Assembly: GCA_001775995.1 (NCBI GenBank)
Contig: MEZH01000004.1
Span: 1 to 21,597 of the forward strand
Reading direction: 5' to 3'
DNA from: Candidatus Bathyarchaeota archaeon RBG_16_48_13
GTDB taxonomy: Archaea > Thermoproteota > Bathyarchaeia > RBG-16-48-13
Length of the DNA stretch: 21,597 bases
In this document: positions 781-20,209 of the stretch, piece by piece
Position numbering within the stretch: the first letter of the stretch is position 1
How the letters are laid out: the number at the start of each line of letters is the position of its first letter
Translations under genes and position numbers: made by a program
The notes under the pieces: model-generated
Database searches by the model: none
What the model was told of the DNA's origin: nothing
What the model saw: the letters and a program-made list of their open reading frames with translations, nothing else

Positions 781-1869
781 CTACCAAGGGTTCGTGAATA
801 GCTTCTTCATCAGGTCGATATCAACCTTCCCAGCATGATGAACCCTCCCCGTCCTGGTGTCGCTCAGCGACGCCTCGGCGACTACCCACATCCCCGCCAT
901 CGCTATGGCGCTGCGGATGCGCAGCCACGACTCCAGGTCCTTAACGTCCTTCGTCAGGTCCTCCATCGGCTGGAAGCTCCTTACCCTCGACTGGTAATAC
1001 GACCTTCCGTAGAGAGTGCCGTGGCTCTCCGTCGCGAGGTCCTTCACCATCAGGTCCATGTCCCACTCCTCTTTGGAGCGGACCCAGAAGTGCGCCCTGC
1101 CGCCGTAGTCTATCATGTCGTCCATCCAGGCGCACGGCTCCCTGAAGACGTTGGGCGATATGGGGCAGAGCGGCGTCGATCCCGACGCGTGCTCCATCCT
1201 CTCGTAGGGCACGTTGTGGTACTCGGTAAGGCGCCAGAACACATCCTCCACCCCGCTTGACGCGACATGTGTGACGCCCGCGACGCTCTCGGACGGCGTG
1301 ACTATTACATAGAGGGCCTTCGGCTCTACCCTGCACTTGTCGGCGATCGTCTGGACGAACTCCTCGTTAGGCAGCCCCTGGGCCTTGTCCCTCGTCTGGA
1401 CCACCACCACCCCCGCGTCCGGGTGCGGATCCCTGTAGCTGATCCTGTCCTTGAACACCCAGTCAGGATCCTGGGCCAGCGCCTTGGCGGGCCCCGATAT
1501 CCACGCAGGGAACGGGTGCTCCAGCGTCTCGGGCGGCGGAACTATGCCGAGCCAGACGAACTGGCAGACCCCTATGAGGGCTGGGAAGTTGGTGTGGCAG
1601 AACAGCGTCGGTATGGTGTAATCATCATAGGTGACATCAGTCACATGCGCGCCTCCGACCCCTCCGAACCTGATCTTCGTGATCAGCTCGCCAGCCTCAT
1701 AGCCCCCCGGAACCTTGACGCCGCAGTCGATCAGGGTGGCGCCGTTCTTCAGCTCTCCGACCTCGACCTGCAGCCTGTCGGAGTCCCGCATCATGTCCTT
1801 GACTATTCTTAGAGCAAGCTGGTTTACGCTTATCTTCTCTGCCCACGGTGGGCTCCAAGGTTCTACCAC
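781..1869 (-). CDS. Divergent methenyl-H4MPT cyclohydrolase (Mch)-family protein
   Basis: SVNQLA, NGATLIDCG, GGYEAG, SGPAKAL, LYVIVTPSESVAG, YGG and TGRVHHAGKVD follow Mch along its whole length. The catalytic motif is altered. The likely start is GTG at 1869, after SD-like GGAGCGTGA; the ORF track starts it at 1899. Confidence 0.85.
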   Translation of the reverse strand: MVEPWSPPWAEKISVNQLALRIVKDMMRDSDRLQVEVGELKNGATLIDCGVKVPGGYEAGELITKIRFGGVGGAHVTDVTYDDYTIPTLFCHTNFPALIGVCQFVWLGIVPPPETLEHPFPAWISGPAKALAQDPDWVFKDRISYRDPHPDAGVVVVQTRDKAQGLPNEEFVQTIADKCRVEPKALYVIVTPSESVAGVTHVASSGVEDVFWRLTEYHNVPYERMEHASGSTPLCPISPNVFREPCAWMDDMIDYGGRAHFWVRSKEEWDMDLMVKDLATESHGTLYGRSYYQSRVRSFQPMEDLTKDVKDLESWLRIRSAIAMAGMWVVAEASLSDTRTGRVHHAGKVDIDLMKKLFTNPW

Positions 1870-1912
1870 ATGGTTCACGCTCCGAAGACGAGCTGCCACT
1901 CGGTCCTGACGC

Positions 1913-2719
1913 CTAGTAAAGGACCGTGTACGGCAGCAGGACTATGTTCAAGATCAGCAGTATGATCAGGGACACGATGGCAATGTAATCAACGGTTTGG
2001 AATTTTATCTCCTTCACGAACGTCCTCTTGACAGGGGCGCCGAACGCCCTCGACTCGATGGCCACGTCCAGCTCGTCTGACCTCTTCAGCATCGCCAGCG
2101 TCAGCGGCGTCACCAGAGGAACGTATGCCCTGATCTTCTTGAAGAAGTTCATGTGCTCGAAATCGTAGGCCCTGAGCTTCTGGGCGTTGAGGATTTCACC
2201 CCAGGTCCTCGACATGAGGGGCGCGAACCTGAGAGCCGTTGAGAGGGTGAAGTTGAAGCTGTATGGGACTTTCAGCTTCGCCAAGGCCACGATGAAGGTC
2301 GAGAGAGGGGTCGTCATGGTCAGGATTGGGATGCTGAAGACGATGCACAGTATCCTGAGAGAAAGGGTGACCCCGAACAGGAAGCCCTCCAGGGTGTACG
2401 CCCCTATGTTCTTGCCACCTACGTTGAAGGTGAAGAGGGTGAAGAGCACCGTCTTGCCCCTCCAGTAAAAGAACCCCTGCACCAAAAGGAAGATCACTAT
2501 AGTTGTTGCCAGCAGCGCGAAAATGACTTTAAGCCTCGAAATCGGGATCCTAGCGACACCCCACCACGCCAAGATCACAACGAGCAGGATCGTCAACAGT
2601 ATGAGGTTCGGGAAAACTGACGCCAAGATGAAGCACATAGCCAAGAAGAACAGCTTCGTCACAGGGTTCATCCTGTGGACGGCCGTCTTTCCAGGCACGT
2701 ATTCAAGTATTGAAGCCAT
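1913..2719 (-). CDS. ecfT: ECF transporter transmembrane component T (copy 1)
   Basis: HRMNPVTK N-terminus, hydrophobic helices, ALRFAP, and the two X-R-X coupling motifs (KLRAY, ESRAFG). Confidence 0.92.
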   Translation of the reverse strand: MASILEYVPGKTAVHRMNPVTKLFFLAMCFILASVFPNLILLTILLVVILAWWGVARIPISRLKVIFALLATTIVIFLLVQGFFYWRGKTVLFTLFTFNVGGKNIGAYTLEGFLFGVTLSLRILCIVFSIPILTMTTPLSTFIVALAKLKVPYSFNFTLSTALRFAPLMSRTWGEILNAQKLRAYDFEHMNFFKKIRAYVPLVTPLTLAMLKRSDELDVAIESRAFGAPVKRTFVKEIKFQTVDYIAIVSLIILLILNIVLLPYTVLY

Positions 2720-2722
2720 TTT

Positions 2723-4438
2723 CTAGGCACCTCCATATGATGATAACAGGCCTTCTACCGACAATACGTTCGGCACCCCATGGTCCTTCATGGTTTGGGC
2801 GAGTTGCGTTATCTGGGGAGGCTTCAGGTAAGTCTTCTCCAGGATCCCGGTCTGGCTGAACACCTCTTCTGTCGGCCCGTCAAGGAGGATCTCTCCAAGC
2901 CCCATTACAACGGTGCGCTTCGCGTATTTCGCGACGAGGTCCATGTCATGGGTAATCATAATCACAGTGTGGCCTTTGTCATTCAGGTTCTTTGCGAGAT
3001 CGGTTATCTCGTATCGCCCCTTGTAATCCTGGGCGGTCGTGGGTTCGTCCAGAATTATGATCTTGGGCTCCATGGCTAGGACAGCAGCCACCGTCAGCTT
3101 TCTTCTGTCGGCGAAACTGAGTCTTAGCGGGTAGACGTTCTTGGAGTTCTCCAGCCCGACGGACTTGAGCGCCGAATCAACTCTCTTGTCTATCTCCTCC
3201 TTGGACAGCAGGAGGTTCTTGGGCCCGAACTCCACTTCTTCCTTCACCGAGAGGGCGAAGAGCTGATGGTCAGGGTTCTGGAGGATCAGACCCACCCTCT
3301 TGGCTATCTCTCCCGTCGTGAATTTCTTCGAGTCATCTCCATAAACCAGGACCTGCCCGGTGGTGGGCTTCAAGAGGCCGACAAAATGCTTCACAAGGGT
3401 TGTCTTCCCCGCGCCGTTCTGCCCGATTATCCCGACGAATTCTCCGTCGTATATTCTGACGTTTATATCCTTTAGGGCGAGCACGTTGCCTGGATAGGTG
3501 TGTGAAAGGTTCCTTGTCTCCAGGATCGGCGATCTGCCTTCCTCAGAGACCGCGGTGGCGCCAGCCGCCGGTTGAGTGCTGTGCGCTCTCCTCTTGTGGG
3601 GTTTAGGAATATCCGCCACAGCTTCCTGCAAAGTGATCGGCAACTTGTCGATCTTGAAGCCCTTCTTCCTCAGCTCAAAGCCCAACCTGGTCACGGGCGG
3701 AACCTTCACCTCGATCTTGTCTAGGAGATCGATCTTGCTGAAGACTTCGTGCGGATCGCCGCTTGCTATCATCTCGCCATCATTCAACAGGATTATCCTG
3801 TCGGCAATCTCTGCAACCTCTTCGCTCTTGTGCTCAGCCATCACGATGGTGACGCCATATTTCTTGTTAAGGTCCCTGACGACCGACAAGACCTCCGTTG
3901 AGCCGATCGGATCCATCTGAGAGGTGGGCTCATCAAGTACCAGAACGTCTGGGCGCATTGCGAGGACTGCGGCAAGAGCCAGACGCTGCTTCTGGCCGCC
4001 CGACATCTCGTTCGGGCTTCGGTCCAGCATCCCTTCCAACCTGACAGCCTTCAGAACGTAACTTGTCCTTTCGATGATTTCCTCTCGCGGTATTCCAAGG
4101 TTCTCCGGCCCGAATGCAACCTCCGTTTCGACGTCGGGGCATAGTATCTGGGTCTCTGGGTCCTGCAGCGCCATCCCGACCTTCTGGGCCAACTCATAGA
4201 CTGGATGTTCATCAGTTTTGAGGCCGCAGACGGTCACGATGCCGCTCTTCTCTCCCTCAACGACGTTAGGCACGATGCCATTCATGGTCATGCAAAGGGT
4301 GCTCTTCCCGGCTCCATTTGGACCCATTATGACTATGAACTCGCCCCTCTCGACATCGAAATTGATGTTCTTCAGGGCCTTAGCGCCGTTCGGGTAGGAG
4401 AACGAAAGATCCTTAACGGAGATTATGGTGTCGGTCAC
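2723..4438 (-). CDS. ECF transporter fused double ATPase (A-A'), copy 1
   Basis: Two nucleotide-binding domains: GPNGAGKS / MSGGQKQR / LVLDEPT and GQNGAGKT / LSFADRRK / IILDEPT. Q-loops LQDPETQ and LQNPDHQ are of the EcfA/CbiO type. Confidence 0.95.
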   Translation of the reverse strand: MTDTIISVKDLSFSYPNGAKALKNINFDVERGEFIVIMGPNGAGKSTLCMTMNGIVPNVVEGEKSGIVTVCGLKTDEHPVYELAQKVGMALQDPETQILCPDVETEVAFGPENLGIPREEIIERTSYVLKAVRLEGMLDRSPNEMSGGQKQRLALAAVLAMRPDVLVLDEPTSQMDPIGSTEVLSVVRDLNKKYGVTIVMAEHKSEEVAEIADRIILLNDGEMIASGDPHEVFSKIDLLDKIEVKVPPVTRLGFELRKKGFKIDKLPITLQEAVADIPKPHKRRAHSTQPAAGATAVSEEGRSPILETRNLSHTYPGNVLALKDINVRIYDGEFVGIIGQNGAGKTTLVKHFVGLLKPTTGQVLVYGDDSKKFTTGEIAKRVGLILQNPDHQLFALSVKEEVEFGPKNLLLSKEEIDKRVDSALKSVGLENSKNVYPLRLSFADRRKLTVAAVLAMEPKIIILDEPTTAQDYKGRYEITDLAKNLNDKGHTVIMITHDMDLVAKYAKRTVVMGLGEILLDGPTEEVFSQTGILEKTYLKPPQITQLAQTMKDHGVPNVLSVEGLLSSYGGA

Positions 4439-4455
4439 GTTGATTGCAACCCCGA

Positions 4456-4467
4456 TGAACGTAAAAT
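4456..4467 (-). promoter_or_regulatory. Conserved 12-bp element ATTTTACGTTCA upstream of ATPase 1
   Basis: 11/12 identical to ATTTGACGTTCA at 11736-11747. The two lie 18 and 19 nt from their ATPase start codons. Confidence 0.5.
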
Positions 4468-4490
4468 TAACTTATGACAGATTGGCTCAT

Positions 4491-4504
4491 AAAAAAAGAA
4501 AAAA
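4491..4504 (-). terminator. Oligo-T terminator T6-C-T7 after S component 1
   Basis: Plus strand AAAAAAAGAAAAAA, about 25 nt past the stop at 4530. An identical 14-mer follows S component 2. Confidence 0.7.
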
Positions 4505-4529
4505 TGTTGGTGCTCATCCTCTTTCAAGG

Positions 4530-5303
4530 TCACCAAACAGCTCTCGGGATCTTCTTCAGCCCACTCTTCTTTAGCCCTCTCAATATCGCCGTGCCGATAA
4601 TAGCCGCGACGGTGTAGAATATCGATGCCTGCCACCAGACCGCAAATATACCTATCCAGATGTTCAGAGACGGCGGAAAGACGTACCAGATGTCGTACCA
4701 GACCCAGCCAAGAAGATGTCCTATTTCCCGCGCAATCCAGGTTGTGAACCAGACCGCGATGAAGATCTTCACAGGGCTGTCGCTCCTCAACCATAGGTTG
4801 AGATGCTTGTACCCCAGGACGACCGTCCATAGAAGCCCTCCGAAAGCCACCCATACTATAGCCTGCCACATGTTGGGATCGAACGCCGGAAAGCCTCCCG
4901 CTGGTCCTGGCCATGCATACGGGATGAACATGAACATCACTGAGAACACTATCCACAGCGGAACCAGGTAGTACCATTTCCTGTTGGCCACAAGCCCTGC
5001 AGCTAGGGGAGGCAGTATCCAGCCATCAAGTATACCCAGAGCTCCAGTAGAGAAGGCTGCCGGGTTGATGAAAAGGCCTATGATTCCCCCGATCAGACCT
5101 GCGACGGCTCCTGCGAACGGGCCCAGCACCAGACCGGTCAGTGGAAGCAGAGCTGTAGCGAGCGGGAAGACCGCTCCTCCTTCCATGTAGTAGATCAGCG
5201 GGATGATTCCCGTTGCCCCCAAGATTGCACCGAAGATCGCAATCCACGAGAGAGGAGCGCCAAAAAGTGCGGCTCTCTGAGCACTAGTCTTGGTCTCTGC
5301 CAT
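4530..5303 (-). CDS. Putative ECF substrate-binding (S) component 1, unusually long (257 aa)
   Basis: Highly hydrophobic. AxxxA-like motif in TM1 (AIFGA) and an LGPxxGAxAxxIGG segment. Lies directly upstream of the ECF ATPase and T genes. Paralog at 11837-12595. Confidence 0.75.
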   Translation of the reverse strand: MAETKTSAQRAALFGAPLSWIAIFGAILGATGIIPLIYYMEGGAVFPLATALLPLTGLVLGPFAGAVAGLIGGIIGLFINPAAFSTGALGILDGWILPPLAAGLVANRKWYYLVPLWIVFSVMFMFIPYAWPGPAGGFPAFDPNMWQAIVWVAFGGLLWTVVLGYKHLNLWLRSDSPVKIFIAVWFTTWIAREIGHLLGWVWYDIWYVFPPSLNIWIGIFAVWWQASIFYTVAAIIGTAILRGLKKSGLKKIPRAVW

Positions 5304-5684: not shown

Positions 5685-6698
5685 ATGGGCAGGATAAAGA
5701 TCGACGCGATAATAGCGCCAGAGTGCGATCTTAAGACCCTTGCAAGGCTTTCCAAGATGGCGGAGAAGTACAACTTCAACACCATATGGATGGGTGATGG
5801 CGCCTATCAGAGAGACTACGCGTCTTGCCTCACGATCATGGCTCAAGCCACCAAGAGGATAGGCGTGGGTTTGGCCGTGACCAACCCATATCTACGACAC
5901 CCCATCAAGAGCGCCTTGGCGATTGCCAGCGTAAACGAGATCTCCGGGGGGAGGGCTCTCATGGGGATCGGGGCGGGGAGCCTCGACACACTGAAGTCGC
6001 TCGGACACAATTGGAACATGCCGGTAGAGCGGATCTCCGACATGATAACGGCTGTCAGATCCTTCTTAAGCGGAAGATCGGTGGAACTGAAGACAGATAC
6101 AATAAGCATCGAGGGTGTGAAGGCCTGGATGCCGTTGATTAGCCCCATCCCGATCTATGTCGGTTGCAGGCGGCCCTTGATGATGAGGATGGCGGGAAGG
6201 TTTGCCGACGGTGTCCTCCTCGACAACGTCCCAATTGAATACCTGCCATTCGCTCTGGATCAACTCAAAACTGGGTCAGAGTTGTCTAGAAGGGATTTCA
6301 CCAAATTCGACGTTGGAAACCTCAGCATATTCGCGGTCTCCGAAGACAAGAAGGAGGCTATGAAAAGGGTCAAGAGGCACCTTCCATACGACTTTATCAC
6401 AATCTCCAAGAGGGAGCTCAAAGCCGTGGGCCTCACGCCGAGGGATATCGAACCAATGCTCGCCGCCCTACGGCGGCAGCTGCCGGAGGACTTCATGAAG
6501 GCTTCAGAATTCGTCACCGATTACATGGTCAAGAACTTCTCCACCAGCGGAACCCCTGAGGAGTGCATCAGGAGGATAAAGGATTATTCGAGAGCTGGAG
6601 TCACCAGGATCCTGCTCGGATTGCCCACAGAGCCAAGCGATAAGCCTGAGGAAACGCTGAAACTCGCGGGAGAATCAATCCTGCCTGAGCTAAATTGA
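5685..6698 (+). CDS. Luciferase-like (LLM) oxidoreductase, Mer-like, probably F420-dependent
   Basis: AEKYNFNTIW, AVTNPYLRHP, EISGGRALMGIGAG, PIPIYVG, AGRFADGVL and SGTPEEC are LLM/Mer motifs. F420 use is inferred from family and host type. Confidence 0.85.
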   Translation: MGRIKIDAIIAPECDLKTLARLSKMAEKYNFNTIWMGDGAYQRDYASCLTIMAQATKRIGVGLAVTNPYLRHPIKSALAIASVNEISGGRALMGIGAGSLDTLKSLGHNWNMPVERISDMITAVRSFLSGRSVELKTDTISIEGVKAWMPLISPIPIYVGCRRPLMMRMAGRFADGVLLDNVPIEYLPFALDQLKTGSELSRRDFTKFDVGNLSIFAVSEDKKEAMKRVKRHLPYDFITISKRELKAVGLTPRDIEPMLAALRRQLPEDFMKASEFVTDYMVKNFSTSGTPEECIRRIKDYSRAGVTRILLGLPTEPSDKPEETLKLAGESILPELN

Positions 6699-9100: not shown

Positions 9101-9985
9101 CTAGGTTGGCAAGAAAGTCGGCGGCTTCGCCCATGAAGGAACCCACCACATCCAGTCTGAGGGGACGAAGTACCCCTGCCAATATATCTGGCCGTAGATC
9201 ACTAGAGCGGCGAACAGTGCCATCACTATAAGGAATATGTAGTCTACGTGAGTGAAACGAAACTCCTCGACAAAGGTCCTCTTGACTGGGGCACCGAAAG
9301 CTCTGCTCTCTATGGCGATTTCCAAGTCGTCAGATCTTCTGAGAAGGGACATGAAAAGCGGTGTCACAACAGGCACGAAGGCCTTGCGGACCTTGTCTAG
9401 ATAGCTCATCTTGTCTATGTCATGAGCCCTGAGTACCTGAGCGTCCTTTATGTCGTAATAAGTCGTGAAAATTAGGGGAGAGAATCGTACGGCTGTTGAG
9501 AAGGCGAAGTTGAATTTGTACGGGAACTTCAGCTTCTGCAAGGACACGGCTATTTGCGGGACCGACGTGGTCAGTGTCAGCAAAGGCACGCAGGAGAATA
9601 TACACACGATCCTTATGACCATCGCCAAACCGTAGGTCAAACCCTGGAAGTATATGCGCCCGAAGGGCTTGTCGACGGGCCAAAAGGGTATGTTGAATTC
9701 AAAGACCGAAATGTAGGGCCCTCCAAACATCCACAGAAGTGTCTGGGCAGCGACCCATATCGCCCCCGACGCGAGCATGATCACAAAGAGGAACTTGAAC
9801 CTGCTGAGCAATCGAGGTATTCCAGCCAAAGCCCATAATACCATGATGCTTACCAAGACTATGGCCAGGGAAAAGATGTCTCTCAGCCCAAGGGTCACGA
9901 AAATGATGTAAAGGGAGAAAAATACTTTCGTAATGGGGTTCAGCCTATGGATCGGCGAGTTACCCGCTACATATTCTATGGCCAT
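9101..9985 (-). CDS. ecfT: ECF transporter T component (copy 2)
   Basis: HRLNPITK, AVRFSP, VLRAH and ESRAFGAPVKRTFV. The last block is identical to copy 1. Confidence 0.92.
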   Translation of the reverse strand: MAIEYVAGNSPIHRLNPITKVFFSLYIIFVTLGLRDIFSLAIVLVSIMVLWALAGIPRLLSRFKFLFVIMLASGAIWVAAQTLLWMFGGPYISVFEFNIPFWPVDKPFGRIYFQGLTYGLAMVIRIVCIFSCVPLLTLTTSVPQIAVSLQKLKFPYKFNFAFSTAVRFSPLIFTTYYDIKDAQVLRAHDIDKMSYLDKVRKAFVPVVTPLFMSLLRRSDDLEIAIESRAFGAPVKRTFVEEFRFTHVDYIFLIVMALFAALVIYGQIYWQGYFVPSDWMWWVPSWAKPPTFLPT

Positions 9986-9992
9986 TTCTCTC

Positions 9993-11717
9993 TCACTTCC
10001 TGAAACTCAACGATTCTTTAAACTCATCTACAGTAATAATATCTTTGTGGACACCTTGCTTCTCAAGGGCTTGCGCAAGCTGACCTATCTGCGGCGGCTT
10101 CAGGTATGTCGTTTGGAGGACATCCGGCTTCTCAAAGACCTCGTGCGTCGGTCCGTCCAATATAACCTCACCGTTGCCTAGAACGATCGTCCGGTGGGAA
10201 TACCTCGTCACCAATTCCATGTCGTGAGTGATCATCACGACGGCATTTCCGCGTTCATTCAAGTTCTTGGCTATCTCAACTATGTCGTACCGCCCCTGGA
10301 AATCTTGCCCTGTGGTCGGTTCATCTAGTATGAATACGCTAGGCTTCATCGCGTATATCGCAGCCACCGCCAGTTTCCGTCTGTCTCCAAAACTGAGTCT
10401 GAACGGATAGGCCTTTCTCATTTTCTCCAAGCCAACCAGCTTGAGGGCTTCATCAACTCTTTTGTCGACCTCTTCTTTGCTAAGTCCGAGGTTTGTGGGG
10501 CCGAAGGCCACCTCCTCTTCCGCGGACTGCGCAAACAGCTGATGATCAGGGTTCTGAAGCACCAGCCCGATGTTTCTCGAAAGCTGGGCAGCAGTCTTTT
10601 TCTTTGTATCTTCACCTAGGACCACGACGTTGCCCTTTGTGGGCTTAAGCAGCCCCACGAAGTGCTTGACCAACGTGGTCTTTCCGGCGCCGTTCTGGCC
10701 TATGAGGGCGACGAACTCACCTTCATATATCTTGAGACTGATGTTCTTTAGCGCCACAAAGTCCGGCGGATATGTGTGCCACATCTCGCGTGTCTCGAGG
10801 ACCACTTTGTCCGAATGTGAGGACTCAGCCCTGTTGATCATGTACCCCTTCTTCTCATGGATCTTCTTCTCCTCGAAGAGCTTCGACAGCGCGGATATGC
10901 CCTCTTCAAGGGTTACCGGGAACTCTTTGGCCTTCTCGTGTTTGTTGATCCAGTGGAACAATTGGCTTACTTGAGGTAGCTTCACTTTCGACTCATTAAA
11001 CAGTTGCTCATTCTGGAATACCTCATGAGGGTTTCCGTCAGCCACGACTTTCCCTTCGTGAAGGAGTATAACCCTGTCAGCGAAATCAGCGATCTCCTCG
11101 CTCTTGTGTTCGGTCATTATGACGGTAATCCCGAATTTCTTATTGAGATCCTTCGTAACGGAGAAGACTTCGGTTGTCCCTATTGGGTCGAGCTGTGAGG
11201 TGGGTTCATCCAAGATTAATATCTTCGTCTGCATGGCTATTGCGCATGCCAAGGCGAGCCTCTGTTTCTGGCCCCCCGACAGCTGCAGGGGAGATGCCGC
11301 CTCCTTCCCGTCGAGCCTCGTGACCTTCAGGGCATAGGCGAGACGCTTGAGGATCTCCTCTCTGGGGATACCTAGATTCTCTGGACCAAAAATGACTTCA
11401 GATTTCACGCTGGGCGCAAGGAGCTGGGATTCCGGATCCTGTAAAGTGATTCCAACTTTCTGCGCCAAGTTGAAGATGGGCGTCTTCGTTGTCTGCAGCC
11501 CATCGATGATGATTTTGCCTTCATACGTCCCATTGATGAGGGATGGAATAACGCCGTTAAGGGTCAGGCATAGAGTTGTCTTGCCGGCGCCGTTCGCGCC
11601 CATGACTACGACGAATTCGCCCTCGTTTATCGCGATGTTGACGTTATCGAGAGCCTTCCTCTCCCCCGACGGATAGGTAAATGAAAGATTTTCTATTGTA
11701 ACTATGGGCTCAGCCAT
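9993..11717 (-). CDS. ECF transporter fused double ATPase, copy 2
   Basis: GANGAGKT / LSGGQKQR / LILDEPT and GQNGAGKT / LSFGDRRK / FILDEPT. Confidence 0.95.
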   Translation of the reverse strand: MAEPIVTIENLSFTYPSGERKALDNVNIAINEGEFVVVMGANGAGKTTLCLTLNGVIPSLINGTYEGKIIIDGLQTTKTPIFNLAQKVGITLQDPESQLLAPSVKSEVIFGPENLGIPREEILKRLAYALKVTRLDGKEAASPLQLSGGQKQRLALACAIAMQTKILILDEPTSQLDPIGTTEVFSVTKDLNKKFGITVIMTEHKSEEIADFADRVILLHEGKVVADGNPHEVFQNEQLFNESKVKLPQVSQLFHWINKHEKAKEFPVTLEEGISALSKLFEEKKIHEKKGYMINRAESSHSDKVVLETREMWHTYPPDFVALKNISLKIYEGEFVALIGQNGAGKTTLVKHFVGLLKPTKGNVVVLGEDTKKKTAAQLSRNIGLVLQNPDHQLFAQSAEEEVAFGPTNLGLSKEEVDKRVDEALKLVGLEKMRKAYPFRLSFGDRRKLAVAAIYAMKPSVFILDEPTTGQDFQGRYDIVEIAKNLNERGNAVVMITHDMELVTRYSHRTIVLGNGEVILDGPTHEVFEKPDVLQTTYLKPPQIGQLAQALEKQGVHKDIITVDEFKESLSFRK

Positions 11718-11735
11718 TTTACAATCAGACCTGCT

Positions 11736-11747
11736 TGAACGTCAAAT
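11736..11747 (-). promoter_or_regulatory. Conserved 12-bp element ATTTGACGTTCA upstream of ATPase 2
   Basis: Positional and sequence match to 4456-4467. Confidence 0.5.
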
Positions 11748-11805
11748 ACTCAATCTGAGTTCTAATTAGGCTTTGCGGTAACGGCAGAGCCGAGAGTTAT
11801 GATTC

Positions 11806-11819
11806 AAAAAAAGAAAAAA
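11806..11819 (-). terminator. Oligo-T terminator T6-C-T7 after S component 2
   Basis: Plus strand AAAAAAAGAAAAAA, identical to 4491-4504, about 17 nt past the stop at 11837. Confidence 0.7.
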
Positions 11820-11836
11820 GGGGTTAAATAGTGTTC

Positions 11837-12595
11837 TTACCAGACAGCTCCGGGTATTCTTCTGAGCCCGCTCTTCCTAAGCGACAGCAGCAACGGCACT
11901 CCTATTATGCCTGAGATCACCTGCAACATCACCCTCTCAAAGGGCACCGCGACACCAGATAGCACCGCGACGACGTAGGCCGGAATCGGGAAGTAGAATA
12001 GCAGCCACGTTGTCCAGCCCCACAGGTGCAATGATTGAGCGGCTATCCAGTGCAATAACATCAGGCCGAAGAACATCCTTGTCTTGTTGTCGCCCTTGAC
12101 CCAATCCGCCACTTTGCCTCTGCCAACGGTGATCAGCAGTGGGAACGATAGGCCATCGTACCAAACTGAAGCGGCCAAGAAGGGTTGTGGCAATGCACCC
12201 ATTGCAGGATATGTTGGCCAATACCACGGGGTAAGCTCGTAGAATACGATCCCAAATAGCGGTACCCACCATATCCATTTCCATTTCTTGTTCAGGATCA
12301 TGCCTGCCATGAATGCCGGTCCGATGAAGTTAGTGATCAACCCGTCGATGGTAGAGCCAGGGGCCAAGAACATACTGATCGCTCCCCCGATTGTGGCTGC
12401 AGCTGTTGCTCCCCAAGGTCCCAATAGAGCGGCCACTATGGCTATTACTGCGTAGCTCAGTGAGTGATATCCGCCACCCTCAACATAGTAGATCAGAGGT
12501 ATGATTGAACCTGCGCCTAGGAGAGCCCCCATCAATGCCACCCAAGATACTGGAGCTCCACCTATTGTAGCACTAGTTGTTTTTTCTTCACCCAT
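11837..12595 (-). CDS. Putative ECF S component 2 (about 252 aa)
   Basis: Paralog of 4530-5303, sharing GAPxSW, IIPLIYYxEGG, LGP, NxKW, HLxGW and KSGLxxIPxAVW. The likely start is ATG at 12595 after GAGGGTGA; the ORF track starts it at 12610. Confidence 0.75.
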   Translation of the reverse strand: MGEEKTTSATIGGAPVSWVALMGALLGAGSIIPLIYYVEGGGYHSLSYAVIAIVAALLGPWGATAAATIGGAISMFLAPGSTIDGLITNFIGPAFMAGMILNKKWKWIWWVPLFGIVFYELTPWYWPTYPAMGALPQPFLAASVWYDGLSFPLLITVGRGKVADWVKGDNKTRMFFGLMLLHWIAAQSLHLWGWTTWLLFYFPIPAYVVAVLSGVAVPFERVMLQVISGIIGVPLLLSLRKSGLRRIPGAVW

Positions 12596-12606
12596 TTTTT
12601 TCACCC

Positions 12607-12873
12607 TCACTCCTTTGGTTTCATCATGACGCCTGCGACGTACATCACCGCGCCAACGACTAGCGGGATAACACCCATCCAGCCATTAGCGTAAGCCATG
12701 CCCCAATGGTACTGCCAAGTCGCCGGATTCCACGGCGCACCGCCACTCCACACGTCCAGCGGCACATAAACATAGCTGCTGAACAGGACCATGGCACCCA
12801 CCGCAATCAGAAGAATACCGATCCACCGAACAATATCGTTCATCTTCCAACCAGATTTCTTAGCTTCTGCCAA
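12607..12873 (-). CDS. Small 2-TM membrane protein 2 (about 88 aa)
   Basis: Homolog of 5303-5521 (WIG, AVGA, SS, MG, VVG). The likely start is TTG at 12873 (MAEAKK, compare MAEETK) after GGAGG; the ORF track starts it at 12891. Confidence 0.8.
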   Translation of the reverse strand: MAEAKKSGWKMNDIVRWIGILLIAVGAMVLFSSYVYVPLDVWSGGAPWNPATWQYHWGMAYANGWMGVIPLVVGAVMYVAGVMMKPKE

Positions 12874-13073: not shown

Positions 13074-13763
13074 TTATGTCCTGAATTTCTTCTGCACTTC
13101 CTCGATCCTTCCACACGTCAAGGCACCCTCTGGACAGTAATCCAGCTCGACGCACTCCGGCCCTGCGTCCTTGAAGATAGTGGGCGCCACCTCCTTGACC
13201 TGTCTCAGCATCTCCGTGGCCAGCTCCCTGATCTCCCACTGAGCTCTCTCGCAGCACCTGACCTTGAAGAAATGCTTCAACTCTCTCGCATTCATGGTCA
13301 ACAACACGTTCGTCTTAGCCGCGTTTGGCAGAACGTACCTAGCGTCCTCCAGAGGGATACCGAGGTCGATCAGCCTTCGGTACGTTCCGGATATCTTCTC
13401 CATCGCTTCGCCGAACTCCCTCGATGCCTCCTTACTCGCCTCCACGCTTATCGGCACCACGTAGTGCGCATTAGAATCATAAGGGACGTAGCGTTGACTC
13501 TGCTGTGTAAAGGAAGCAAGTCTGTGCCTCACAAGTTGATGCGTCAAGGCCCGCGAAACACCCTCCACGCTGAAAGTGAAAGTTGCATGTTCAATTATAG
13601 ATACATGACCGTAGCCCGTCACATTCTTGATGACCTTCGCAGCCTTTTTCGAGTCGATTGTCTCGAAGAGTTCTGAGGCTCCCTCCGGCCTGGTCGAGGT
13701 CAGCGCGGCCGCGGCGCAGAGCAGTTCAGGGTCTGGGGTGCAACGGAGGAGTTTCACAAGCAT
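13074..13763 (-). CDS. thyX: FAD-dependent thymidylate synthase ThyX
   Basis: Signature RHRLASFTQQSQRY, plus GHVSIIEHA, EDARYVLP, NARELKHF and AQWEIR. Confidence 0.97.
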   Translation of the reverse strand: MLVKLLRCTPDPELLCAAAALTSTRPEGASELFETIDSKKAAKVIKNVTGYGHVSIIEHATFTFSVEGVSRALTHQLVRHRLASFTQQSQRYVPYDSNAHYVVPISVEASKEASREFGEAMEKISGTYRRLIDLGIPLEDARYVLPNAAKTNVLLTMNARELKHFFKVRCCERAQWEIRELATEMLRQVKEVAPTIFKDAGPECVELDYCPEGALTCGRIEEVQKKFRT

Positions 13764-17595: not shown

Positions 17596-18405
17596 CTATT
17601 TGGGATGCAATACGCGTAAAGCCTGTTCGGCGGTAGCTCGTCTGTGGATTATGGAGCCGATGGCTCTTGTGATACTCACAGGATCCGGGTGCTGCCAGAC
17701 GTTTCTTCCGAAGGCCACTCCTCTTCCACCCGCTTTCAGGGAGCCCTCAATCGATTCGAGCATCTTCATTTCATCGCCTGTCTTGGGTCCGCCCAAGATG
17801 ACCACCGGAACGTAGCATTTCTTCACGACTTCCCGAAAGGTCTCAGGAGTGCCAGTGTAGTATGTCTTTATCATGTCAGCCCCGAGCTCTGCCCCAACCC
17901 TAGCAGCTATGCTCACACTCTCTTCCGAGTAGGGATTCTCCGTGACTGGAATCATCTCCGCCAGGAGTGGCATCCCCCAGTCCTCGCAGGATTCAGCCAC
18001 AATATTTAGGTTCTGCAACATCGCAGATTCTCCGGGACAACCTATAAAGGCGGTTACGGCTACTGCGTCAGCGCCCATCTTGATCGCAGATTCAACACTT
18101 CTTGTTATGGTTGAGACATGGTGCTGAAGACCTTCCGGGCCTACAGGGGTGCCAGACCCGCTTATTCGCATTATAAAGGAGATGTCTCCAGCCATCAAAG
18201 AGTGGTTGCTTCTTATCACTCCAGTAGTGGTTAGTAAGGCGTCAGCCCCACCTTTAACAAGCTTCATTATTGTCTCGGCAGGCCTCTCTATGCCCTTCAA
18301 CGGCCCGTCCGCAGAGCCATGATCCATGGCCACTATAAGAGTCCGGTTGGAGCTCTTTCTGAAGATCCTGTTTAATCTAATATCCTTTCCGACGTCTCTG
18401 ACCAA
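17596..18405 (-). CDS. Class I (DhnA/FbaB-type) aldolase, substrate uncertain
   Basis: AMDHG, GADAV, Schiff-base motif AELGADMIKTYYTG, LGGPK, and GRNVWQ. Confidence 0.9.
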   Translation of the reverse strand: MVRDVGKDIRLNRIFRKSSNRTLIVAMDHGSADGPLKGIERPAETIMKLVKGGADALLTTTGVIRSNHSLMAGDISFIMRISGSGTPVGPEGLQHHVSTITRSVESAIKMGADAVAVTAFIGCPGESAMLQNLNIVAESCEDWGMPLLAEMIPVTENPYSEESVSIAARVGAELGADMIKTYYTGTPETFREVVKKCYVPVVILGGPKTGDEMKMLESIEGSLKAGGRGVAFGRNVWQHPDPVSITRAIGSIIHRRATAEQALRVLHPK

Positions 18406-18448
18406 ATGCAGACATCCCTTAATCGTTCAATCTGGTTCGACCAAGTTC

Positions 18449-19963
18449 TTAACCAAATCGGATGCCTTTCATCCTCTGATAGATCTCTTTGTAGGTTGAG
18501 AAGTTCTGGGAATACAGGTCATGGAGGCTTCGATCAGGTTCGAAGACTTCATCAACCTTGAGGACGTTTTCGATGGCTTCCTTTGTGTCCCTGTAATAAT
18601 GAACTGCACAGGACGCCAATATCATTGCCCCAAGCGGGGAGGTCTCTCTGACCTTTAGGGATTTGATGTTCCTTCCCGTAACGTCGGCCTTGGTCTGGAG
18701 CCAGAATCTGCTCTTGGAGCCTCCCCCAGTTGCGCGGACTTCTCTCACACTTATGCCCAAATCCTCGATAGTCTCAATGAGGTCGCGCAGAAGATATGAG
18801 GTGGACTCAAATATCCCCCTGATGGCGTGGCTTTTTGTGTGAGCAAGGGTCAGTCCGGCTATGACACCCCGCGCCTCGGGGTCCCAGATGGGAGATCGCT
18901 CTCCTTGAAAATACGGAAGGAGCATCAGACCGTCTGCCCCAGGTTTGACGTGCGATGCCTCTTCACTCAAGAGTTCGAAGACGTCGCGACCGGTCTCATT
19001 TGCAATTGATGCTTCTTCGCCAGCAAAGCAGTCTTTGAACCAGTTCAGTATGGCCCCGCTGGTTGAGCTGGGTGCCTCTATCAACCACTTGCCTTCGACC
19101 CCATAGCAGTTGGTTATTACCCTCATCTTGCGATCGATGACGGGTTCATCAGCGCAGACTGAAGCTATCGTGGACGTTCCAGTGACATCGTGACATATTC
19201 CTTCCTCGGAGACCCCAGCTCCCAGAGTAGCGCAGATTGCATCTCCACTTCCCACAGTTACCGGTGTATTAATGGGGACGCCCAGGAGTCTGCTTGCCTC
19301 AGCCGAAATATCTCCTGCTATTTCGTTTGGGCTCTTCAGAAGGGGTAACTTCTCAAGCGGTATATCCAGCTCTGCCAACAATTTACTCGACCAATCTTTC
19401 TTCCGAAGATCGAGGAGCATTGAGCCCGAGGCATCACCATGATCGGTAGCAAAGAGCCCAGTTAATCTGAACCTTAGGTAGTCTTTCGGCATCAAGAAGA
19501 TGTGTGTTCGTTTGAAGATTTCAGGTTCGTTTTCTTTGATCCACATGGCTTTGACGGCAAAGAAAGCAGGGTCTATCCTATGGCCGGTAATTTCATACAG
19601 ATACTTGCCGCCCAGATGTTTTCTTAGCCTTTCAGCTTGGCTTACGGCTCTCCTGTCCATCCAGATGATTGAGGGCCTTAAGGGTGAGCCCTTCTTATCA
19701 AGAGGTACGATGCCGCTCATTTGCCCTGTTACACCGATCACTTTAATGGCTGAGGAGTCAATCTTAGAATTTCTGAGGGCCTCCCTCGAAGCTCTTATGC
19801 TGGACGCCCACCACGCCTTCGGATCTTGTTCAACCCAGCCCGCGTGTTGCTGACAAAGGGGGTAGGAGTCATAACCAGATCCAATCATCTCGCCTTTTAT
19901 GCTGAAAACGACGACCTTGCAGCCCGCTGTTCCTAGGTCCAAAGTCAAAATGTGAGGTAGCAA
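18449..19963 (-). CDS. FGGY carbohydrate kinase, xylulokinase-like
   Basis: LDLGT, EQDP, TGQMSG, WMDRR, PKDYL, PYFQGERSPIWDP, GGGSKS and WLQTKAD. The likely start is TTG at 19963 after GAAGGA; an in-frame ATG lies at 19981. Confidence 0.92.
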   Translation of the reverse strand: MLPHILTLDLGTAGCKVVVFSIKGEMIGSGYDSYPLCQQHAGWVEQDPKAWWASSIRASREALRNSKIDSSAIKVIGVTGQMSGIVPLDKKGSPLRPSIIWMDRRAVSQAERLRKHLGGKYLYEITGHRIDPAFFAVKAMWIKENEPEIFKRTHIFLMPKDYLRFRLTGLFATDHGDASGSMLLDLRKKDWSSKLLAELDIPLEKLPLLKSPNEIAGDISAEASRLLGVPINTPVTVGSGDAICATLGAGVSEEGICHDVTGTSTIASVCADEPVIDRKMRVITNCYGVEGKWLIEAPSSTSGAILNWFKDCFAGEEASIANETGRDVFELLSEEASHVKPGADGLMLLPYFQGERSPIWDPEARGVIAGLTLAHTKSHAIRGIFESTSYLLRDLIETIEDLGISVREVRATGGGSKSRFWLQTKADVTGRNIKSLKVRETSPLGAMILASCAVHYYRDTKEAIENVLKVDEVFEPDRSLHDLYSQNFSTYKEIYQRMKGIRFG

Positions 19964-20209
19964 ATGGAATCCTTCAACCATTAATAGTTATAGAGTCGAA
20001 GGTAGAAAAAAATAGCGGTTGATTTCGAGAGAGTATGCACCATAGATTGCTCAAAGCCTTGACCGACATGAAGAACGTAAAGATCATTGGAAAGAGAGAA
20101 ACGTGACGCTTTTCACTGATACGGATAAGAGATGCCTTAGAAAAAGTGCTAGCGTCGGACAAGAGCTCACAAGGAAGTGAAAATTGGTGCCATCGTGCAA
20201 TTGATCGCA

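Follow-up and report, generated by a model that had tools for sequence, protein, structure and literature searches.

The question raised by this locus is what a diverged gene of the methenyl-tetrahydromethanopterin (methenyl-H4MPT) cyclohydrolase (Mch) family, which has lost the hallmark active-site arginine, does at the end of an operon for an energy-coupling factor (ECF) importer. The gene, here called MchL, lies on the minus strand at positions 781 to 1899 of a stretch of 21,597 nucleotides (nt) of Candidatus Bathyarchaeota archaeon RBG_16_48_13 (contig MEZH01000004.1, positions 1 to 21,597), the whole of which is referred to below as the window. Mch is regarded as a marker with one function, H4MPT-dependent one-carbon (C1) metabolism, and in metagenomics the Wood-Ljungdahl pathway or methanogenesis is inferred from its presence. 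MchL is an intact, selectively maintained member of a small Mch paralog clade specific to the Bathyarchaeia, and the evidence given below suggests that its job lies outside classical C1 metabolism.

The reading frame is open throughout and encodes 372 amino acids (aa) from a GTG at 1899, or 362 aa from a second GTG at 1869. The second of these, at residue 11, is the probable start, because the closest homolog, 95% identical, has an ATG at the matching position (as seen in both P0007 and L035; P, L, C and G numbers are our handles for proteins, loci, contigs and genomes) and because a GGAG stands about 10 nt upstream. Translation reproduced all the motif coordinates of the original prediction, which had been made from the DNA letters without database searches. 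The features of the gene are as follows.

781 to 1899, minus strand: MchL, diverged Mch-family open reading frame (Pfam, TIGR03120, phmmer, AlphaFold2 model, VIA).
1867 to 1869, minus strand: probable start codon GTG, residue 11 (ATG in P0007 and L035; upstream GGAG).
1843 to 1860, minus strand: N-terminal PWSPPW extension, residues 14-19 (alignment).
1549 to 1563, minus strand: QFVWL loop, residues 113-117, counterpart of Q93-K94-A95-G-W of Archaeoglobus fulgidus Mch (alignment).
1507 to 1539, minus strand: Pro-rich insert PPPETLEHPFP, residues 121-131 (alignment).
1246 to 1269, minus strand: HVASSGVE motif of the active-site helix, residues 211-218 (translation, alignment).
1267 to 1269, minus strand: codon of H211 (translation).
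1255 to 1257, minus strand: S215, codon AGC, in place of Arg183 of A. fulgidus Mch (translation, alignment).
1246 to 1248, minus strand: E218, codon GAG, the catalytic Glu, kept (translation, alignment).
Residues 257-261, minus strand: AWMDD motif (translation).
889 to 984, minus strand: C-terminal insert of about 20-30 aa, residues 306-337 (alignment; lower model confidence).

The protein matches the Pfam model MCH (PF02289) with 179.4 bits (E = 1.3e-52, gathering cut-off 25) over profile positions 1-264 of 311. Its score against TIGR03120, the equivalog model of Mch (EC 3.5.4.27), is 171.8 bits and lies under the cut-off of 228.8; identity to the enzyme itself is 27-31%. Only Mch entries were returned when solved structures were searched with phmmer (1qlm, E = 2e-39; 4fio, 4gvq and 4gvr). 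AlphaFold2 modelling with 101 family sequences gave a mean predicted local distance difference test score (pLDDT) of 91.3; Foldseek matched the model to Mch structures only (E = 1e-31 to 5e-28, target TM score 0.86-0.89), and VIA-align superposed it on these with Z scores of 39.7-41.4 and root mean square deviations of 1.9-2.1 Å over 307-313 of about 316 residues. The best superposition was with 1qlm (Z = 41.4, 2.0 Å, 313 of 316 residues), and the next match after the Mch structures had a Z of 4.5. The predicted fold is that of Mch over the whole chain, and with the PF02289 match this bears out the original identification as an Mch homolog. Compared to the solved enzymes (1QLM, 4FIO, 4GVQ/4GVR), MchL carries N-terminal, Pro-rich and C-terminal additions, the first confidently modelled (pLDDT about 91 for residues 11-20) and the last with a pLDDT of only 59-76. 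It also differs from them in being the third paralog of its genome and in lying behind an ECF importer and not among C1-pathway genes. Like them, it retains most of the residues that 90% or more of the family share.

Arg183, Glu186 and the loop 93-95 of A. fulgidus Mch are taken here to be the active-site elements with mechanistic roles, as reportedly described by Upadhyay et al. in Biochemistry in 2012. In pairwise alignments HVASSGVE stands opposite QVSARVVE of M. kandleri and QISGRIVE of A. fulgidus, with S215 facing the Arg and E218 the Glu. The Arg column of 138 full-length Mch-family sequences is R in 122, S in 7, K in 3, C in 2, and H, M, V and L once each, Ser being confined to the immediate clade of the window's gene; the Glu column holds E in 132, including every MchL. 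The original statement that Arg has become Ser while Glu is kept is therefore sound. Four residues before the Arg the family has Gln (117 of 138 sequences) and the Ser clade alone has His, so that the pair H211 and S215, one helical turn apart on the same active-site helix, is found in that clade only. Both substitutions are single third-position transversions (CAA to CAC or CAT, and AGA to AGC or AGT). A sequencing error at S215 was ruled out, since eight independent sequences carry the H..S pair and the Ser codon alternates synonymously between AGC and AGT among members of the clade. P0020 carries His directly at position 215. R268 was considered as a compensating gain and dropped, because a basic residue there (R or K) is the ancestral state of the wider clade.

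The remaining sequence peculiarities named in the original prediction were found by translation and alignment, with one qualification. QKAGW is replaced by QFVWL, one residue shorter, in which Q113 and W116 are retained and F-V stands in place of K-A-G; the loop may be functional if backbone amides alone matter. The Pro-rich insert occurs in similar form in the Arg-keeping sister clade described below, the C-terminal insert of the Ser clade exceeds that of the sister clade by about 11 aa, and the PWSPPW extension is conserved across the Ser clade and partly in P0020. AWMDD is indeed present where GRTND was expected, but it is not peculiar to this gene: the extra residue and the DD are common to a wider clade, which includes one of the genome's own other Mch proteins, encoded on contig C11 (ITPDDM).

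In a maximum-likelihood tree of 101 Mch-family sequences the protein falls within a 16-member subfamily, to which the name MchL is extended, with a support of 99 in the Shimodaira-Hasegawa-like approximate likelihood ratio test (SH-aLRT). The sister of the subfamily is a clade that includes the Mch gene on C11. Within MchL there is a seven-member Ser clade (support 100), to which L037 adds an eighth Ser member; a seven-member sister clade and P0021 keep Arg, and P0020 has His. The alignment with PF02289 members and the tree, proposed as checks in the original prediction, thus map the loss of Arg to one clade of MchL. The sister clade (P0013-P0019; L024, L026, L032 and G349) is 49-53% identical to the MchL of the window and shares with it the Pro-rich loop, the EDxFWRLTE segment (the catalytic Glu and its neighbours, invariant across the subfamily), the C-terminal NPW and a link to solute importers. 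It differs in that Arg and Gln are kept, the extra 11-aa C-terminal segment is absent, and the gene adjoins an MtaD-type deaminase and mostly also a sugar-type ABC importer.

Strong purifying selection acts on the Ser clade. The ratio of nonsynonymous to synonymous substitution rates (dN/dS) within it ranges from 0.037 (window against L035) to 0.108. Its stem measures 0.37, twice that of the sister clade (0.18), and its internal branches are short. A long stem, short branches and low dN/dS together point to a shift followed by constraint, not to decay, and decay of the gene was ruled out by the low dN/dS and the synonymous variation of the Ser codon. Frameshifts or decay in close homologs, which the original prediction had named as signs against it, were not seen. 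The sole decayed copy encountered is a two-fragment relic in a distant metagenome-assembled genome from Guaymas (L034), which also keeps an intact MchL on another contig (L029). The relic (L034:6200-9400) consists of two short out-of-frame fragments, corresponding to the active-site helix and the C-terminal NPW end, and adjoins an S-T-AA' ECF module, an M19 fragment, AOR genes and a gene resembling dihydroorotate dehydrogenase.

MchL is rare. Of 517 clusters of the Mch family in a set of 1.84 billion representative proteins, three full-length ones, formed at 50% identity, account for the subfamily. Of the 401 genomes of the class that were sampled, 3 hold a true MchL (more than 300 bits with the subfamily profile), which indicates an accessory rather than a core role, and none was found in the 40 nearest relatives. 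The source genome (849 kb in 16 contigs, 75% complete) holds three Mch-family genes, of which two look canonical, scoring 296 and 269 bits with the Pfam model compared to 169 for MchL; the housekeeping role of Mch presumably belongs to these two copies.

In the window MchL is the last gene of a minus-strand operon, in the order S-like protein, A-A' ATPase, T component and MchL:

4530 to 5303, minus strand: S-component-like membrane protein, 257 aa (similarity to a paralog).
2723 to 4438, minus strand: fused ECF ATPase A-A' (profile match).
1913 to 2719, minus strand: ecfT1, CbiQ-family T component (profile match).
1900 to 1912, minus strand: spacer from the ecfT1 stop to the first possible MchL start (no promoter- or terminator-like site).

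The ecfT1 stop is at 1913-1915, so that the gap to MchL is 13 nt from the start at 1899 or 43 nt from that at 1869, a short distance as originally claimed. No promoter- or terminator-like site was found in the junction, the sigma-70 scan being of little use for an archaeon, and no A/T-rich box can be seen there. The G+C content at third codon positions (GC3) is 0.82 for MchL and 0.80 for ecfT1, ranks 2 and 3 among the 428 open reading frames of at least 250 aa in the genome (mean 0.55, standard deviation 0.087), which argues for a common history of expression or acquisition. GC3 climbs along the operon, from 0.64 in the S gene and 0.71 in the A-A' gene to the values just given, and the rise could reflect joint acquisition or the codon bias of a highly expressed unit. 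The contig of the closest relative (L035, 89% nucleotide identity) opens with the final 48 nt of an ecfT gene, placed as in the window. Co-transcription with the importer, which the original prediction had proposed, is accordingly probable from the arrangement of the genes (same strand, short gap, no intervening signals, joint GC3); as for its conservation, adjacency extends to the closest relative only, and it is young. The S component has a paralog at 11837-12610 (34% identity, E = 5e-34), within a second ECF region of the window (9101-12610), and part of its nearest clusters in the Atlas carry PF07155. A 180-aa open reading frame that overlaps the S gene in another frame (4435-4977, minus strand) has a low-complexity, implausible translation and is probably no gene. 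Downstream of MchL, blastx with the neighbourhood proteins found no gene remnants in the spacer 464-780.

The surroundings of MchL in relatives were compared by clustering the open reading frames of 14 loci. The top recurrent neighbour, present in 10 loci and often adjacent, belongs to the amidohydrolases of the TRZ/ATZ/MtaD/DadD deaminase type and is 450 aa long. It was considered as an analogue of FwdA and rejected: it matches the TRZ/ATZ/MtaD models, and no FwdA stands among the best 25 of 61 matches. Next come a zinc-dependent alcohol dehydrogenase (Zn-ADH), a DeoC-type aldolase, an FGGY kinase, a short-chain dehydrogenase/reductase (SDR) and a ribokinase that scores above its cut-off; DUF2193, an Ftr-like protein, a protein resembling M19 dipeptidases and an ABC importer of the sugar type also recur. 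Sugar-type ABC importers stand beside MchL in L024, L025, L026, L032, L033, L036 and L037. In L026, L032 and G349, all of the sister clade, MchL is followed by an Ftr-like gene, a second, canonical-like Mch and a MalK-type ATPase. The flanks of the Arg-less L036 and L037 hold a phosphoribosyl pyrophosphate synthetase-like gene, an SDR and an Ftr-like gene in addition to the ABC importer, and the vicinity of L036 also contains form III RuBisCO, a gene of the ribose-1,5-bisphosphate isomerase family and a PfkB kinase. ECF modules whose S components are homologous to those of the window lie 6-10 kb from MchL in L029-L031, where they adjoin a gene of the ADP-ribosylglycohydrolase family, and directly beside the relic in L034. 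These recurring neighbours tie MchL repeatedly to an importer, ECF or ABC, and to apparent enzymes of nucleoside or N-heterocycle processing. In the window itself the deaminase and an Ftr-like gene are not adjacent to MchL, and DeoC and FGGY genes lie about 16 kb away at 17596-19981; homologs of the MtaD-type deaminase and of E1 are present in the genome on contigs other than that of MchL.

Two side observations concern these loci. On contig C12 of G349 (48000-71235; L045/L046) Mch-family and Ftr-like genes each occur three times within 20 kb, together with two each of MtaD-type deaminase and M19 dipeptidase-like genes and a sugar-type ABC importer; the stretch looks like a repeated Mch/Ftr/deaminase module. 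In L027 (2504-3252) the ECF A-A' gene by MchL appears split into at least two short frames, maybe through a frameshift or decay.

The importer family was also followed apart from MchL. Homologs of the S type (at least 88 bits) occur in about 15 of the 401 class genomes and never near an Mch gene; modules and Mch genes are on different contigs, and a general linkage between the two was ruled out. In six loci (L039-L044) the gene after ecfT was surveyed. In L039 ecfT is directly followed by an arginine deiminase (ADI)-family protein and an ornithine/aspartate carbamoyltransferase; in L043 an ADI-like gene comes after an SDR, with the carbamoyltransferase at the opposite end of the module; in L040 and L044 a class-III aminotransferase follows directly. 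The varying genes point to a variable slot for soluble enzymes that act on C-N bonds in nitrogen compounds, which MchL fills in the window. Group I ECF operons are said to carry enzymes related to their substrates (reportedly Rodionov et al. in the Journal of Bacteriology, 2009), and the present operon resembles them in uniting an S, A-A', T module with the gene of a soluble enzyme. The proposal in the original prediction that MchL acts on the imported compound is reasonable in view of its operon position and of the other C-N-acting enzymes found in the slot; the part that fares less well is the adjacency, which is limited to the closest relative. The genes that follow ecfT in modules with the unusual 257-aa S type hint at import of nitrogen compounds for breakdown rather than of classical vitamins. 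In the literature searched no ECF operon with an Mch-family enzyme was found, and to our knowledge none has been described; the open literature searched also held no description of Mch paralogs or of what Arg183 and Glu186 do.

The explanation we prefer, tentatively and at somewhat short of an even chance, is that MchL is an active, neofunctionalised cyclohydrolase working on an imported N-heterocycle or pterin derivative. The substrate, an N-heterocycle derived from a nucleoside or else a derivative of a C1 carrier of the pterin type, would enter through the ECF importer, with whose genes MchL would be transcribed. Glu218 would activate water to open, or in reverse close, a cyclic formamidine, and His211 would supply the polar or positive partner given by Arg in canonical Mch. 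Among enzymes for cyclic formamidines or for N-formyl and N-formimino groups, FolD cyclohydrolase, FTCD cyclodeaminase, 5-formyl-tetrahydrofolate cyclo-ligase and the IMP cyclohydrolase PurO/PurH, whose folds are unrelated to that of Mch, open or close a ring at the formamidine carbon between two nitrogens; an altered Mch could conceivably carry out such a reaction on a purine or pterin derivative, the likeness to these enzymes being purely chemical. A bolder version, which we regard as doubtful, makes MchL of the Ser clade the first enzyme of the Mch fold to work on something else than methenyl-H4MPT, a His/Glu cyclohydrolase for a compound delivered by a new class of ECF S component, and the cyclic formamidine opened could then be a purine- or pterin-derived ring.

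Several observations weigh against the preferred explanation. The Arg-less L036 and L037 (73-74% identity) have no ECF genes within 8-10 kb; the S-type modules without a nearby Mch in about 15 genomes mean that importer and MchL are separable, and the importers of this family, to judge from the variable slot, are not dedicated to a substrate of Mch. The usual partners of MchL, ie the Ftr-like, DUF2193 and M19 genes, were not found in the genome of the window. As for the original prediction, the tree makes the loss of Arg a clade-specific change and not a feature of the subfamily, and the new chemistry invoked there is not required, because the change from Gln to His one helical turn away may take over the role of Arg, a role for His211 that is read from its sequence position only.

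Salvage of a pterin, a less probable explanation that still has to be taken seriously, would leave MchL with essentially ordinary Mch chemistry: the ECF importer would bring in a pterin C1 carrier resembling methanopterin or folate, maybe in a stable N5-formyl or methenyl form, and MchL would interconvert the formyl and methenyl forms to feed pterin-dependent enzymes. It is favoured by the Mch fold, the Glu and most of the family-wide conserved residues being kept, by the Ftr-like genes that accompany MchL in relatives, and by the grouping of the importer in the window with genes of actual or apparent pterin-dependent enzymes, namely a Mer-like luciferase-like monooxygenase (LLM; 5685-6698, below its cut-off) and ThyX (13074-13763). 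ThyX needs methylene-pterin, and in the assembled 75% of the genome RFAP synthase, a dihydropteroate synthase-type pterin-binding protein, MptA and serine hydroxymethyltransferase were not found, nor were Ftr, Mtd, FolD, CdhC and FwdA. If these absences are real the cell would have to import a pterin carrier, which keeps this alternative alive; however, they come from an incomplete genome, and since 17 of the 23 genomes searched in the order, a set that includes the window's own, do have Ftr, they may be assembly gaps. Pterin salvage also has to accommodate two canonical-type Mch genes already in the genome, an altered Arg and QKAGW loop, an S component with no sign of pterin specificity, and homologous ECF modules tied to ADI and ornithine carbamoyltransferase or to aminotransferases and not to pterin enzymes.

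Rather unlikely, and more so than pterin salvage, is an incidental adjacency, in which MchL would belong to a pathway for the breakdown of ribosides or N-heterocycles and would have been translocated behind an unrelated ECF operon in this lineage. The MtaD/DadD deaminase in 10 loci, the recurring Ftr-like, ribokinase, DeoC, FGGY, SDR and Zn-ADH genes, the DeoC and FGGY genes of the window and the restriction of direct ECF adjacency to the window and L035 are all in its favour. Set against this, the extreme GC3 shared with ecfT1 and the tight, signal-free spacing tie the genes together, ECF modules are found near MchL again in two further lineages, and the deaminase and E1 homologs of this genome are on other contigs. 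That MchL has lost Mch activity and serves as a non-catalytic ligand-binding or regulatory partner is improbable. The lost Arg, the reshaped oxyanion-loop segment and the score under the TIGR03120 cut-off would fit a pseudoenzyme, but the catalytic Glu with the EDxFWRLTE segment is invariant across the subfamily, dN/dS is very low, and a His next to the lost Arg is present in every member of the Ser clade. The non-catalytic pterin-binding partner offered as an alternative in the original prediction is likewise disfavoured by the low dN/dS, the kept Glu and the retention of nearly all conserved residues.

A constrained Arg-less paralog in importer and nucleoside-type contexts, with the rest of the pathway not found in the assembled part of the genome, means that Mch matches need a check of subfamily before a pathway is inferred from them. 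If the substrate of MchL does differ, the gene would mark the first known divergence in function of the Mch fold and would give a handle on uptake and breakdown by the Bathyarchaeia, which are very abundant in sediments. The bolder version, if true, would add an undescribed route of uptake and breakdown, or of salvage, in cofactor-poor Bathyarchaeia.

The Mer-like gene of the window is one of approximately 13 LLM paralogs in the genome, which are found on contigs C1, C4, C7, C11, C12 and C14. On C11 an LLM gene overlaps the start of the canonical-type Mch (L002:452-2448), close to a major facilitator superfamily gene, an SDR and another Mer-like gene, and this group is the paralogous counterpart of the island in the window.

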